In this document: piece after piece, positions 1,792 through 10,438 of the stretch | How positions within the stretch are numbered: the first letter of the stretch is position 1 | Layout: every line of letters begins with the position of its first letter | Virus record (IMG/VR): IMGVR_UViG_2660238190_000006 | Reading direction: 5' to 3' (one strand) | Length of the DNA: 11,635 nt | Origin: a virus | Lineage: Duplodnaviria; Heunggongvirae; Uroviricota; Caudoviricetes | Notes under the pieces: model-generated | The model's input: the letters and a program-made list of their open reading frames with translations, nothing else | Told to the model about the DNA's origin: nothing | The model's database searches: none | Program-made: the position numbers and the translations under genes

Positions 1792-1937
1792 TCACGCTGG
1801 CGGCACACAGCCGCCACACATCAATCATCTGAACACAGAGCTATAACCATGAAGATTGAATATACGCCAGAACGTGGGCGGGGATTCGTTCGCCCTGGTG
1901 AGACTGGAAAACCACAAAATTGGGGTTTTTCAGGCAT

Positions 1938-1970
1938 AAAAAAAGCGGCCCCGAAATGGAGCCGCCTTTC
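1938..1970 (-). terminator. Rho-independent terminator between convergent alpA and the minus-strand genes (strongest in minus orientation)
   Basis: Seen: A7-GCGGCC-loop-GCCGCC-TTTC on + strand, so on the minus strand a GC stem is followed by a T7 run. Lies about 95 bp downstream of the minus-strand ORF stop at 2061. Confidence 0.5.
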
Positions 1971-2060
1971 TGAACAGATAACACGCTGCGCCGTTTGTGT
2001 GTGTGATCCCAAACATAAGCACGGGGATGATAGCCGCTATCAGGCTGGTGGGCAATGCAA

Positions 2061-2249
2061 TCAGTCTGGTTCAGTTCGTTGCCATACCTGCAATGAGCGC
2101 TTTTCCCTGTACTCTTTAAGGAATTGCTCAAGGGCAAAAGCACATGGCGCGAATCTTTCTGATTCATGCTCTATCTTTCTGCGCCGTCTTTTCCGTGCCG
2201 GTGATAATGTTTTGGTCAATTCTTTATCGGTCATTGTGTTGTCCTGCAT
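2061..2249 (-). CDS. Small basic hypothetical protein (62 aa; alternative start at 2234 with AGGA RBS)
   Basis: ORF with Arg/Lys-rich stretch ARKRRRRKIEHE. In the same reading frame as the upstream RHH ORF, separated only by a TAA and 14 sense codons. Followed by the 1938-1970 terminator. No family recognised. Confidence 0.4.
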   Translation of the reverse strand: MQDNTMTDKELTKTLSPARKRRRRKIEHESERFAPCAFALEQFLKEYREKRSLQVWQRTEPD

Positions 2250-2291
2250 AGCAATGCGCCGTAATACCTCACACCACGGCGCTGATAGTTT

Positions 2292-2483
2292 TTATCCTTT
2301 GGGTTCTATACCGCGCCGCTTTAGTTCAGTACGCCCCAACTCTTTAAGCCAGTTGGCTAGGCTTATGCCGTCGCTCTGTGCTTCTTTATCGAATTGCTCT
2401 TTTAGCTCTGGAGAAATTCGCATTCTGAATTGTGGGGATTGCCCGTCCCCTTTAGGGCTTTTATCGCGTTTGATTGTTGACAA
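2292..2483 (-). CDS. Ribbon-helix-helix (CopG/Arc-like) DNA-binding protein, antitoxin-like
   Basis: 63-aa ORF with TTG start preceded by GGTGA. Segment FRMRISPELKEQFDKEAQSDGISLANWLKELG fits a beta-strand/helix/helix RHH fold pattern. Call is inferred from pattern only. Confidence 0.5.
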   Translation of the reverse strand: MSTIKRDKSPKGDGQSPQFRMRISPELKEQFDKEAQSDGISLANWLKELGRTELKRRGIEPKG

Positions 2484-2617
2484 GTGGTCACCTATTGAAT
2501 TAGCCTTTCTATTGTTAGGTGGTCACCTTAACACAAGAGCACTTAAAAAAGCAAAGCCCCGCAAGTGTCATTACCACTCGCAGGGCTTCTAACCAACAAC
2601 GTAAACTAGGAGCCGTT

Positions 2618-2815
2618 ATGGTTGCTGTAAATCATATACCACACCTTGTACACACACAAACGGCCTTTGTGTGGCGTTTTCTGGCACTGAGTGCCGGAGA
2701 ATCTCAAATCATCCACGTAACCGCCTGGACGGAACGCGAAGCGCGTAGCCGTTGCCCGTCCGGTTGTGTTGCTGTATTCGCCGCCCGTATTCGTCAGGAG
2801 GTGCGCCATGATTAA
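2618..2815 (+). CDS. Icd-like host cell division inhibitor family small protein (tentative)
   Basis: 65-aa ORF from ATG 2618 with strong RBS AGGAG 5 nt upstream. Sequence MVAVNHIPHLVHTQTAFVWRFLALSAGESQIIHVTAWTEREARSRCPSGCVAVFAARIRQEV resembles, from memory, the Icd-like proteins annotated in P4-like prophages. The 2519 start of the tracked ORF was rejected. Confidence 0.55.
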   Translation: MVAVNHIPHLVHTQTAFVWRFLALSAGESQIIHVTAWTEREARSRCPSGCVAVFAARIRQEVRHD

Positions 2816-8918: not shown

Positions 8919-10438
8919 TATGTGGCCTTTCCAGGGTGTGCCCGCACGTAAAAGGGCCGATGCGTGGCAGACCCATTGAGCTGGAGCCGTGGCAGCAGTT
9001 CGCCTTTGCGTGCATCCTCGGCTTTAAGGTTAAGGCCACCGGACGGCGCAAATACACGAGCGCCTTTATCGAAGTGCCGCGCAAAAATGCGAAATCCACG
9101 ACCGCCGCGATTCTGGCTAACTGGTTTCTGATTATGGAGAACGGTCAGCAGGATATCTACACCGCAGCGGTGAGCCGTGACCAGGCGCGGATCGTCTTTG
9201 ATGATGCGCGTCAGATGTGCCTTTTATCCCGACCGTTACGCAGGCGGGTGAATATTCAGGCGCATAAGGTGATGCACCCGAAAAGCAACAGCCTGTTAAA
9301 GCCGCTGGCAGCAAAAGCGGCAACCATCGAGGGAACAAACCCCAGCCTTTCCATCGTGGACGAATACCACTTGCACCCCGATAACGGCGTTTATTCCGCG
9401 CTTGAGCTGGGGATGGGCGCACGCCCCGAAGGGCTGTTATTTGCTATTACCACATCAGGCAGTAACGTCGTTTCAGCCTGTAAGCAGCACTATGATTATT
9501 GCTGCCAGATCCTGGACGGCGAAGAGGTCAACGATTCAATTTTTGTACTGATTTACGAACTGGACGACGAAAACGAGGTTGATGATCCGGCGATGTGGAT
9601 AAAGGCGAACCCTAATATTGATGTTTCCGTGGATCGTGAAAAACTGGCCTCAACCATCCAGAAAGCGCGGGGTATTCCGTCGCAGTGGGTGGAGATGATG
9701 ACAAAGCGATTTAATATCTGGTGCCAGGGGGCTACCCCGTGGATGGGTAACGGCGCATGGGCTGAGTGTGCCGGAACGTTCACGGAGGAAGATTTACACG
9801 GCCAGGAGTGTTACGCGGGGCTGGACTTATCATCAACCAGCGATATTTCCAGCGTGTGCTATGCCTTTCCGGTCGGTAAAACCATTATGCTGGTTTCCCG
9901 TCACTATCTGCCGGAATTTCAGCTACAGAACCCCGCCAATAAAAACCGCGCCATCTATCGTCAGTGGGCTAAAGCAGGCTGGATACGCACAACGCCTGGC
10001 GACTGCATTGATTACGACCGGATCAGAGATGACATCATGCAGGACGCGGAGAAATTTAATATCAGGCTGGTGGGCTTTGATACGTGGAACGCCACGCATC
10101 TCAGAACGCAATTACAGGGGGCAGGTTTTGAGGTGGAGCCGTTCCCGCAAACCTACCTCAGATTCAGTCCGGCGGCGAAATCGTTCGAAGTTTTTGTTAA
10201 CCGCAGGGTGATTGTGCATCGTGGCGATCCGGTGTTGTCCTGGTCGATGAGTAACGTCGTGATGCAGAGTGACGCGAACGCCAATATCAAGCCGAACAAG
10301 AAAAAATCACCGAACAAGATAGACCCGAGCGTGGCGGCGCTGATGGCGTTTGGTACATTCCAGGCAGAGCATGAGGATTTTGCTTTTGATATAAGCGACA
10401 GCCACCGCCAGAAACTGGAAGAATTTAGCGGGGTGTAA
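8894..10438 (+). CDS. Terminase large subunit (Terminase_1 / COG4626-type), with a short N-terminus
   Basis: Motifs recognised: LEPWQQF; P-loop EVPRKNAKSTTAA; AAVSRDQARIVF; Walker B SIVDEYHLH; ITTSG; WIKANPNIDVSV; GLDLSSTSD; C-terminal KPNKKKSPNKIDPSVAALMAF. Start ambiguous (GTG 8894 overlapping the protease end, GTG 8936, or ATG 8960). Confidence 0.85.
   Translation: MGGFSGGVICGLSRVCPHVKGPMRGRPIELEPWQQFAFACILGFKVKATGRRKYTSAFIEVPRKNAKSTTAAILANWFLIMENGQQDIYTAAVSRDQARIVFDDARQMCLLSRPLRRRVNIQAHKVMHPKSNSLLKPLAAKAATIEGTNPSLSIVDEYHLHPDNGVYSALELGMGARPEGLLFAITTSGSNVVSACKQHYDYCCQILDGEEVNDSIFVLIYELDDENEVDDPAMWIKANPNIDVSVDREKLASTIQKARGIPSQWVEMMTKRFNIWCQGATPWMGNGAWAECAGTFTEEDLHGQECYAGLDLSSTSDISSVCYAFPVGKTIMLVSRHYLPEFQLQNPANKNRAIYRQWAKAGWIRTTPGDCIDYDRIRDDIMQDAEKFNIRLVGFDTWNATHLRTQLQGAGFEVEPFPQTYLRFSPAAKSFEVFVNRRVIVHRGDPVLSWSMSNVVMQSDANANIKPNKKKSPNKIDPSVAALMAFGTFQAEHEDFAFDISDSHRQKLEEFSGV

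Follow-up and report, generated by a model that had tools for sequence, protein, structure and literature searches.

At positions 2061-2483 of the DNA analysed here, an 11,635-nucleotide stretch of the IMG/VR record IMGVR_UViG_2660238190_000006 that we call the window, two small open reading frames lie on the minus strand in one and the same frame, and the locus raises the question whether they are the halves of a broken gene, an antitoxin with its effector, or something else. The minus-strand translation of 2061-2483 reads LSTIKRD...GIEPKG KLSAPWCEVLRRIA MQDNTMTDKE...TEPD, that is, a 63-aa ORF (2292-2483) closed by TAA (2292-2294), 14 sense codons and a 62-aa ORF (2061-2249), just as the initial annotation described it. 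We consider it likely that window positions 1938-2528 on the minus strand form a short leftward operon of an Escherichia coli capsid-forming PICI-type phage satellite, with an Arc-type ribbon-helix-helix (RHH) repressor that has its own operators and a separately translated accessory gene, ORF2. Literature searches returned no publications on these two genes beyond annotation-derived lists.

Host element

The element carries int, alpA (AlpA match 5e-18), DUF4222, primase, SSB, capsid, protease and TerL genes and is inserted in tqsA, like its relatives. The EDL933 element, which is the prototype cf-PICI (bioRxiv 10.1101/2022.09.08.507074), is 99% identical to window positions 1800-2800. With int, alpA, a primase, a phage-like capsid and packaging module and a dedicated attachment site, the element has the composition of the capsid-forming PICIs, and the portal-to-terS block is missing from this copy. 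Int and AlpA are convergent with the leftward unit on its downstream side, and the Icd-like, DUF4222 and primase genes are divergent from it upstream. Of 5426 complete E. coli genomes, 1667 have DNA that matches 2040-2500, for the most part its ORF2 half. Synteny in other genera was followed with iterated HMMs, since tblastn with a single query was too insensitive, and the Icd-like hits of these models downstream of the RHH gene are not trusted.

Two separate genes on the minus strand

The initial annotation left open that a nonsense mutation had split one ancestral gene of about 140 aa, and a related idea is that readthrough of the TAA produces a fusion protein. The two ORFs are indeed in the same frame, with no stop among the 14 codons that separate them here; frame sharing, however, has a 1-in-3 chance of arising and is inherited along with the spacer. 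When homologues were aligned, as had been proposed, none had a single uninterrupted ORF (54 RHH and 36 ORF2 homologue clusters), and no fused or full-length homologue of about 140 aa turned up in a word search of 5.8 billion proteins with each half or in an exhaustive profile search with ORF2; RHH entries of greater length (94-111 aa) owe it to an over-extended N-terminus. The RHH gene is intact in all 88 unique DNA copies, ORF2 has a conserved Shine-Dalgarno sequence and start codon of its own, a second in-frame stop is present in about ten homologous spacers, and the two halves recombine independently of each other. TAA is, in addition, an efficient stop codon. The split-gene reading is already refuted by these comparative data, and we give it practically no chance of being right.

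In RefSeq/PGAP annotation the region holds a plus-strand hypothetical protein of 247 aa (window 1849-2592), called in both EDL933 and 14EC001, and if this were the true gene, a possibility that the initial annotation had itself raised, the minus-strand ORFs would be its shadows. The plus-strand frame is open through the ORF2 part in 26 of 26 variants. Its third codon positions coincide with those of both minus-strand ORFs, the classic phase of a shadow ORF, and because of this sharing neither third-position periodicity nor openness can tell the strand of ORF2; since the shadow frame is always open there, ORF2 is called as coding from its substitution patterns, its dN/dS and the conservation of its Shine-Dalgarno sequence and ATG. 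Over the RHH gene the difference is plain, as the minus-strand ORF is unbroken (59-70 aa) in 88 of 88 unique DNA copies and the antisense frame is broken in 42 of them. Replacements are worse when read on the plus strand, with mean BLOSUM scores of -0.93 and -1.19 against -0.28 and -0.06 on the minus strand (the second figure of each pair being that for ORF2), and dN/dS is 0.23-0.28 for ORF2 and 0.34-0.38 for the shadow frame. A plus-strand gene would also be a chimaera spanning a cassette boundary, protein-family matches are obtained for the minus-strand products only, and in other strains PGAP calls assorted "incomplete" pseudogenes or nothing, or sometimes the minus-strand ORF2 instead. We regard it as very improbable that the true gene is on the plus strand; judged by these patterns the 247-aa frame is a shadow ORF. 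Frame intactness, replacement quality and dN/dS all favour the minus strand, as the initial annotation had it, and on comparative grounds both minus-strand genes are established as real and separate.

The RHH protein

The first gene (2292-2483, minus strand; TTG start at 2483, TAA stop) encodes a 63-aa regulator of the RHH type, in agreement with the initial annotation. Homologues are present in many Enterobacterales genera and are nearly all 63-64 aa long. Their N-terminus is conserved, and all but a few end in GIEPKG followed by the stop. The best solved relative in a profile search of the PDB is the Arc repressor of phage P22 (E 0.004, 25-28% identity), aligned along essentially its full length, with the N-terminal arm KG..PQF included, and the protein matches PHROG 228 ("Arc-like repressor") at 5e-7; the match to Pfam Arc (E 0.14) is under the curated threshold. 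In the AF2 model (pLDDT 82), helices at residues 25-37 and 42-56 come after an extended segment, and this is the β-strand-helix-helix topology of about 45 residues found in the Arc/MetJ type. A Foldseek search of the PDB with this model returned P22 Arc as the top seven matches, with target-normalised TM-scores of 0.69-0.88, and RHH antitoxins further down the list.

Public annotation names the protein a "HicB family antitoxin", and its score against Pfam HicB (PF05534) is 20.4 bits, where the cut-off is 21 bits. HicB has an N-terminal RNase-H-like domain and a C-terminal DNA-binding domain; here there is an arm and one RHH domain. Neither ORF2 nor the neighbouring ORFs match hicA (PF07927) in Pfam or NCBIfam. 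Because there is no hicA, no RNase-H-like domain and no partner that matches a toxin family, the HicB label is best seen as an over-extended domain match, and the sequence and model comparisons identify the protein as Arc-like and not as a HicB antitoxin. The 63 residues align over essentially all of Arc, so that no C-terminal neutralising domain is left; only about 7 residues follow helix 2, and the GIEPKG tail that they contain is conserved even at loci without ORF2.

The ORF2 protein and its spacer

ORF2 (2061-2234, minus strand) encodes a small protein of 57 aa that starts at ATG 2234, with an AGGA Shine-Dalgarno sequence at 2242-2245. That the downstream product is basic was correctly noted earlier (15 K/R against 10 D/E), but the 62-aa length was not, as Met 2249 is not conserved in diverged copies; what is conserved is ATG 2234 with a CAGG/AGGA Shine-Dalgarno sequence 8-9 nt upstream. 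Since ORF2 starts at 2234, the true gap between the genes is 57 nt, and this length is found in nearly all of the 102 ORF2 occurrences examined. The spacer folds into an RNA hairpin (2256-2282, minus strand; MFE fold, 11-bp stem, z = -2.2) that is kept in diverged copies through changes compatible with G.U pairing on the minus strand. The RHH-type genes that precede ORF2 and its constant spacer are of at least five sequence types and have two types of C-terminal tail.

The core of the protein, ERFAPCxFALEKFLKEY, varies synonymously, and this includes an AGA/CGA exchange that is synonymous in this frame only. Even the most diverged member, with about 50% identity, keeps the motif ER(F/Y)xPCxFALEKFLKEY. 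Indels in the first 45 codons are all in frame, whereas the C-terminal third varies by frameshift.

ORF2 belongs to a tiny family that is almost confined to E. coli and its close relatives. It matches PHROG 21027, a family of unknown function, at 1e-15, and nothing in Pfam, NCBIfam, PADLOC or the PDB sequences; a tblastn search of phage genomes gave no match and a search of plasmids gave six uninformative records. The exhaustive profile search, among 1.8 billion representative proteins, gave 11 hits and no remote relatives: the small proteins among them are the same family, and the two long ones (more than 1000 aa, with many short matching stretches) are probably spurious repeat matches. The AF2 model suggests a disordered, Arg-rich basic N-terminus followed by a single amphipathic helix. 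ORF2 would be translated on its own from the transcript that it shares with the RHH gene, after the hairpin spacer.

Candidate operators

We propose two operator sites for the RHH protein. Site 1, AAGTGGTCACCT on the plus strand (2482-2493), overlaps the RHH gene's Shine-Dalgarno sequence and its start codon; site 2, AGGTGGTCACCT (2517-2528), lies 35 bp from it and agrees with it in its centre. With at most one mismatch, the motif AGGTGNNCACCT matches the window only at these two places, where 0.29 matches are expected by chance. The position of site 1 is also occupied at homologous loci of many genera, and in most of the 88 loci examined, again from many genera, both sites have fixed positions. 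Among 51 unique site combinations, site 2 is at -45 from the start codon in 28 and between -43 and -45 in 39. In 40 of the 51, no more than 3 mismatches separate site 1 from site 2 of the same locus, while cross-locus controls peak at 5 mismatches.

The centres of the two operators covary within a locus, and the resulting classes track residue X of the β-strand motif F-X-h-R-h. Where X is R or K the operator is GTG-NN-CAC, where it is H the operator is GTGTACAC, where it is Q it is GTACGTAC, and N and S go with CTAT/ATAG and CCAT/ATGG, respectively; the correlation is partly confounded by shared descent. Residue X aligns with Asn11 of Arc, the β-strand being PQFRMRI here and PQFNLRW in Arc. 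Asn11 is a base-contacting residue in the crystal structure of Arc with its operator, and PDB 1par is among the structure matches of the RHH model. As a prediction from this code, Gln in place of the β-strand Arg (FRMRI) should go with operators AGGTACGTACCT. To judge from the sequences, the protein would share with Arc and MetJ the use of repeated or palindromic operators that are read by β-strand side chains.

RHH dimers would bind two 12-bp palindromes (AGGTG-NN-CACCT), one over the gene's own translation start and the other further upstream, in a stretch that also belongs to the divergent promoter. Given this placement, the RHH protein would autoregulate the leftward operon, and, in the quiescent satellite, it probably also damps the replication operon that runs rightward. 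Site 1 and site 2 are inverted copies of one another in several classes, and an RNA stem that hides the Shine-Dalgarno sequence is therefore also possible, if transcription starts further upstream. A scan with the sigma-70 consensus found no promoter in 2484-2620, and hand-picked hexamers there were too weak to count as promoters.

Terminator and candidate small RNA

The leftward operon ends in an intrinsic terminator convergent with alpA (about 1938-1969, minus strand), predicted to fold into a 12-bp stem of GGCGGCUCC/GGGGCCGC with A-U pairs, followed by U7. The earlier view of a tightly linked pair of genes that ends in a terminator of its own is confirmed. It was also thought to be the only minus-strand unit of the island, which holds for protein genes; directly upstream, however, at about 2545-2640, the minus strand has a conserved unit of putative promoter, hairpin and T run. 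This candidate antisense small RNA has a putative extended -10 element at about 2631-2641 and a terminator hairpin at 2553-2589 followed by a T run, and its body would be antisense to the Shine-Dalgarno sequence and ATG of the Icd-like gene (2606-2620). The terminator scan gave a 15-bp stem, only on the minus strand does the fold stand out (z-score -3.4), and RNAalifold on 12 variants gave 18 pairs, 4 of them with compensatory double changes, G.U/G.C alternation being frequent. No Rfam family matches the candidate, and the whole window gave two noise hits only at E up to 1 (rnk_pseudo, E 0.47, and a snoRNA). The idea of an immunity RNA like those of P1 and P4 was dropped, as Rfam shows no C4/CI-type RNA.

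Cassette exchange between satellites

The alignment with the closest relative, L176, which is 98-99% identical elsewhere, breaks exactly at 2289 and resumes at 2547, and the part in between (2290-2546), with the RHH gene and its promoter/operator region, is a swappable cassette. In its place L176 has a different regulator, a 59-aa gene of the YlcI/YnfO type, with three direct repeats, (G)TGTCAGCCAC; in a profile-profile comparison with hhalign the two types match weakly (E 0.007, probability 5%), and the YlcI/YnfO-type partners are RHH proteins only tentatively. Only 112 of the 1667 matching E. coli genomes have at least 80% of 2040-2500 covered, and among the matches listed the partial ones end or begin at query positions of about 245-288, near the RHH stop codon, so that a cassette boundary lies between the RHH gene and ORF2. 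The RHH gene and its candidate operators pass between satellites together, as a probable specificity cassette, much like the immunity regions of lambdoid phages.

The slot behind the RHH gene is almost always filled by ORF2 in E. coli. ORF2 is absent from 80 of 80 non-E. coli loci, where the slot often has nothing in it or else carries genes unrelated to ORF2: a methyl-directed restriction enzyme (as in L056), a PemK-domain protein, DUF4225, Hcp or a SWIM protein. In Xenorhabdus a terminator comes immediately behind a solitary RHH gene. Some occupants of the slot in other genera match PADLOC models, for example mREase_II at 6e-43. The earlier description of the whole unit as cargo fits this slot, which is variable and holds defence-like genes in other genera, but not the RHH gene, a conserved regulatory gene at the junction of int/alpA and the replication operon in many genera.

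Function of the operon

The initial annotation offered, as the alternative to a split gene, a module of an antitoxin-like RHH protein and a small effector, and a type II toxin-antitoxin, addiction or defence module does have points in its favour. In a single operon with palindromic operators, an RHH gene is followed by the gene for a small protein, the public name and the near-threshold HicB score agree with it, RHH antitoxins do occur among the structure matches, and the occupant of the slot is a PemK/MazF-domain protein in Pectobacterium (L075) and a methyl-directed restriction enzyme in L056. Yet the RHH protein is a whole Arc fold without a neutralising tail or the N-terminal domain of HicB, and ORF2 matches no toxin family, its model being disorder and one helix; at E <= 0.01 neither protein matches a defence model in PADLOC. 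Nor are the genes inherited as a pair, with RHH genes lacking ORF2 elsewhere, ORF2 following several regulators and the cassette boundary running between them. The variety of regulators and tail types ahead of ORF2 argues against a specific neutralising contact, and a 57-nt gap with a hairpin is unlike the overlapping or abutting genes that are usual in toxin-antitoxin systems. We find such a module unlikely.

It could also be that translation is limited to the RHH gene, and that what looks like ORF2 is conserved RNA, a 3' untranslated or regulatory segment of the leftward transcript, for example one directed against read-through from the convergent alpA. The extremely narrow family, the frameshifts in the C-terminal third, the conserved hairpin and a model that predicts no globular fold would all suit an RNA. 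They have to be set against an ATG and Shine-Dalgarno sequence that are conserved at a fixed spacing, 45 codons in which every indel is in frame, a core with synonymous changes that extend to the first position of an Arg codon, a dN/dS of about 0.25, and a peptide motif that survives at half identity, and with these an untranslated ORF2 seems decidedly unlikely. Our verdict is that the RHH gene and ORF2 are an ordinary operon of a regulator and an accessory gene, and probably not a toxin-antitoxin pair. The best guess is that ORF2 would be a nucleic-acid- or partner-binding accessory factor that is co-expressed with the repressor, comparable to the genes on prophage repressor transcripts.

Comparison with known systems

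A close parallel is the immI region of Salmonella phage P22, which has the arc-ant operon and where the small antisense RNA sar acts. Arc (53 aa) and the RHH protein are both small RHH proteins with an N-terminal arm and a β-strand motif, and in both operons the RHH gene comes first, a second gene follows and the placement at a divergent control region would allow self-repression; the candidate RNA at 2545-2640 parallels sar. There are also differences, in that Arc has a single 21-bp operator and two separated 12-bp palindromes are predicted here, that the gene after arc is Ant, to which the 57-aa protein is unrelated, and that P22 is a phage and the element a phage satellite. HicB shares the RHH DNA-binding motif, but the HicAB system differs by its hicA, its RNase-H-like N-terminal domain and a partner of a toxin family, whereas the partner downstream here matches none.

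The Stl/Rpr master repressors of Gram-positive PICIs are, like the RHH gene, divergent from the replication operon and next to int, although their fold is HTH and not RHH. As in the lambdoid immunity regions, regulator and operators are swapped as a cassette between near-identical elements, and like rexAB behind cI in lambda, ORF2 lies directly downstream of the regulator on the same transcript. Published defence hotspots of satellites, such as that of P4 between psu and int, lie elsewhere than the slot described here, and ORF2 matches no defence model.

Implications

If none of the regulatory inferences holds, the locus is merely a small regulator and a small ORF. A bolder reading, which we put forward as possible although doubtful, is that the Arc-like protein and its two candidate operators, possibly together with an antisense RNA at the start of the Icd-like gene, make up the quiescence (immunity) switch of Gram-negative PICIs and cf-PICIs, that several interchangeable specificities exist and make satellites "heteroimmune", and that ORF2, in E. 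coli always co-transcribed with the switch, is a small Arg-rich effector on nucleic acid of the helper phage or the satellite. The annotation needs correction, as many E. coli genomes are mislabelled here, both by the name "HicB antitoxin" and by plus-strand pseudogene calls such as "hypothetical", "Icd-like" or "BRO-N". ORF2 is a very common uncharacterised small protein.

For Gram-negative PICIs, only the activator AlpA has been characterised, and the founding paper describes the existence of a repressor as unclear (PMC6092414). The Arc-type protein, with its mapped candidate operators, is a candidate for this repressor. The proposed code would connect one β-strand residue with the operator centre, and the cassette structure explains the mosaicism between satellites.

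Results

The window is a phage satellite from E. coli, of the capsid-forming PICI (cf-PICI) type, inserted in tqsA. It carries int (1-1218), alpA at 1603-1791 (AlpA in Pfam, 5e-18) and, at 2618-2815, an Icd-like gene (NCBIfam, 1.3e-17), 3' of which follow genes for a DUF4222 protein, primase, SSB, capsid, protease and the large terminase subunit. The EDL933/Sakai Sp7 element shares 99% identity with positions 1800-2800, and the EDL933 element is EcCIEDL933, the prototype cf-PICI (bioRxiv 10.1101/2022.09.08.507074). Compared to the closest relative, locus L176, the window lacks about 3.8 kb at about 8925-8931, the junction between the protease end and terL. The corresponding part of L176 (9309-13129) holds the portal gene, IS1, head-closure and head-tail connector genes, HNH, terS and the 5' end of terL, and this cf-PICI copy is therefore probably packaging-defective.

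Two minus-strand ORFs lie between alpA and the Icd-like gene. As described in the initial annotation, minus-strand translation of 2061-2483 gives a 63-aa ORF (the ribbon-helix-helix or RHH gene, 2292-2483), a TAA, 14 sense codons and a basic 62-aa ORF (ORF2) in the same frame, and the pair has its own intrinsic terminator (12-bp stem and U7) at about 1938-1969. RefSeq has instead a 247-aa plus-strand ORF (1849-2592) spanning both, with third codon positions that coincide with those of both minus-strand ORFs, which is the phase where shadow ORFs remain open. Among 88 unique DNA copies, which come from many genera, the RHH ORF is intact in every one (63-64 aa in 74; start codon ATG in 63 and TTG in 13), and the opposite frame has stops in 42 of them; the mean BLOSUM of replacements is -0.28 for the sense frame, against -0.93 for the antisense frame. 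The shadow frame over ORF2 is open in all 26 unique copies, and openness is therefore no guide to the strand of this gene. Its replacements average -0.06 in sense versus -1.19 in antisense, dN/dS for residues 1-42 is 0.23-0.28 versus 0.34-0.38 for the shadow frame, and the synonymous variation in the conserved core, including Arg AGA/CGA, is synonymous in the minus-strand frame only. In diverged strains PGAP omits the plus-strand ORF or converts it to various 'incomplete' pseudogenes, and in some cases it is the minus-strand ORF2 that is called. Both minus-strand ORFs are therefore genes, and the plus-strand ORF, considered earlier as the possible true gene, is an artefact. The RefSeq/PGAP shadow calls (window 1849-2592, loci L001, L082-L085 and L176) include 247-263-aa hypothetical proteins and 'Icd-like incomplete' or 'BRO-N' pseudogenes, and the real genes mostly lie unannotated beneath them.

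The shared frame had raised the idea of a gene of about 140 aa split by a nonsense mutation. RHH homologues (54 clusters) are 61-68 aa, save for truncated calls of 43 aa, a single variant of 58 aa and a few 94-111-aa N-terminal over-extensions, and end, with few exceptions, in GIEPKG before the stop codon; ORF2 homologues (36 clusters) are 57-70 aa, save for two products of frameshifts (100 aa) and one 41-aa form with a deletion. The fused form is absent from both sets, nor did exhaustive profile searching of 1.8 billion representative proteins turn one up. The 62-aa ORF begins with a Met that is not conserved, and the real start of ORF2 is ATG 2234 (57 aa), which has a conserved upstream Shine-Dalgarno sequence (CAGG/AGGA). 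The gap between the genes is 57 nt in nearly all of the 102 ORF2 occurrences examined, about 10 of which have an extra in-frame stop within it, and the shared frame is thus a 1-in-3 coincidence, inherited along with the spacer. Lengths, start and gap stops refute both a split gene and read-through of the TAA.

The best solved relative of the RHH protein by sequence is the Arc repressor of P22 (E 0.004), aligned over essentially the whole chain, N-terminal arm included. The AF2 model (pLDDT 82) has RHH topology, Arc accounts for each of its seven best PDB matches, and the protein matches PHROG 228, 'Arc-like repressor' (5e-7). The public name 'HicB family antitoxin' derives from a match to Pfam's short HicB model that falls below threshold; unlike HicAB, the locus has no HicA gene and the protein no HicB N-terminal domain. 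The protein is new to the Arc family and has been mis-annotated.

Two predicted operators, AGGTG-NN-CACCT at 2482-2493 (site 1, overlapping the RHH Shine-Dalgarno sequence and start codon) and 2517-2528 (site 2), are the sole matches to this pattern in the window, where 0.29 are expected by chance, and most of 88 homologous loci examined have two sites at matching positions. Across loci the outer AGGT/ACCT is invariant and the centre varies, while within a locus the centres agree (at most 3 mismatches in 40 of 51 unique combinations, against a peak at 5 in cross-locus controls). The class of centre tracks residue X of the β-strand motif F-X-h-R-h: R/K goes with AGGTG-NN-CACCT, H with AGGTGTACACCT, Q with AGGTACGTACCT (ACAC/GTGT centres in the KAPAF subgroup), N with a CTAT/ATAG centre and S with CCAT/ATGG. 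Residue X aligns with Asn11 of Arc, a base-contacting residue in the Arc-operator structure. For the inverted site pairs an RNA stem is conceivable, but most sites are themselves palindromic, which suits a dimeric protein better. The RHH protein is, on good comparative evidence, a predicted sequence-specific autoregulator. Within 2481-2493, the first two bases of its start codon are the last two of site 1, and the start is TTG in the R/K class and ATG in the others; operator and start codon are therefore mutually constrained.

Alignment to L176, 98-99% identical elsewhere, breaks exactly at 2289 and 2547, between which L176 has a YlcI/YnfO-type 59-aa gene and three (G)TGTCAGCCAC repeats. Just 112 of 1667 matching E. 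coli genomes cover at least 80% of 2040-2500, and partial matches, among those listed, have a boundary at about 245-288 of the query, near the RHH stop codon. Regulator and operators therefore move jointly as an exchangeable specificity module, bordered by the ORF2 spacer on one side and a conserved minus-strand terminator on the other. Other regulator types adjoining ORF2 have distinct repeats of their own (L176 2780-2865; loci L159-L162 and L130), and upstream of YlcI/YnfO-type genes these include the three (G)TGTCAGCCAC copies, the 14-bp palindrome ATGGTAATTACCAT and TGTAATG-TGT-CATTACA. These repeats are consistent with several interchangeable specificities.

Directly upstream of the cassette is a conserved minus-strand unit (about 2545-2640), a candidate antisense small RNA with an extended -10 (TG-n-TATGAT/TATAAT), a terminator hairpin (2553-2589) and a body with about 40 nt antisense, complementary at 2606-2620 to the Shine-Dalgarno sequence and ATG of the Icd-like gene. 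Among 12 variants, 4 of the 18 hairpin pairs have compensatory double changes, and there is G.U/G.C alternation; the unit matches no Rfam family. It may be an antisense repressor of the first replication-operon gene, reminiscent of sar in P22 immI.

ORF2 and its 57-nt spacer, which contains an RNA hairpin maintained through G.U-compatible changes, are found behind RHH-type genes of at least five sequence types, in two classes by C-terminal tail. The regulators preceding ORF2 end in either ELxxRGIEPKG or RRQRRKAKExE, and these tails are shared even between regulators with different DNA-reading N-terminal halves (L001, L082 and L101 versus L083-L113). The ORF2 family is tiny, found in Escherichia and Shigella only and without a match in the phage collection, and its sole assignment is PHROG 21027 (unknown function). 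In the AF2 prediction it has one helix and an N-terminus that is disordered and Arg-rich; in the most diverged member the Arg tract is missing, but the motif ER(F/Y)xPCxFALEKFLKEY is kept. We can only propose that ORF2 is an accessory factor that is co-expressed with the regulator and binds nucleic acid or a partner.

Discussion

The pair had been thought to be cargo, with an antitoxin-like RHH protein and a small effector. In many genera, however, the RHH gene occupies this same junction, with convergent Int (39 of 81 loci) and AlpA (22 of 81) downstream and Icd-like, DUF4222 and primase genes divergent upstream, and it is not cargo. The slot downstream of it is variable: empty in Xenorhabdus (locus L003), where a terminator directly follows the RHH gene, and occupied elsewhere by a methyl-directed restriction enzyme (DUF6998; PADLOC 6e-43), a 331-aa PemK-domain protein, DUF4225, a pentapeptide/ion-channel protein, Hcp, a SWIM zinc-finger protein or a small membrane protein; a membrane protein of 128 aa recurs in Pectobacterium and Brenneria. 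Unrelated cargo lies about 30-190 nt past the RHH stop (loci L056, L066, L075, L046, L073, L045 and L086), and the cargo-bearing slots are from other genera and one E. coli strain. The cargo intuition therefore fits the slot and not the RHH gene. Satellite surveys give 'HicB' and 'YlcI/YnfO' as annotation-derived accessory or toxin-antitoxin genes (PMC13612085), and our literature search found no published functional description of the RHH gene or ORF2. That RHH and ORF2 form a toxin-antitoxin pair is quite improbable, as ORF2 matches no toxin family, the RHH protein has no neutralising extension and the two are not inherited as a pair; family, defence and structure database searches likewise gave no link between ORF2 and toxins or defence.

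We propose an autoregulated repressor. A leftward promoter, although none was mapped here by our scan, would transcribe RHH and ORF2, and RHH dimers on the two palindromes would shut off their own operon. For the candidate antisense RNA to have a target, the start of the rightward transcript has to lie left of 2545, and the same binding would therefore probably also limit the Icd-like/primase operon. AlpA is a known activator (PMC6092414), and when induced by a helper it would have to overcome RHH repression.

What was first observed at this locus is thus confirmed, and its interpretation partly supported. The module is of an ordinary kind, a small autoregulated repressor with another gene carried downstream, and is of moderate interest in that the RHH protein is a candidate for the missing regulator of Gram-negative PICIs.
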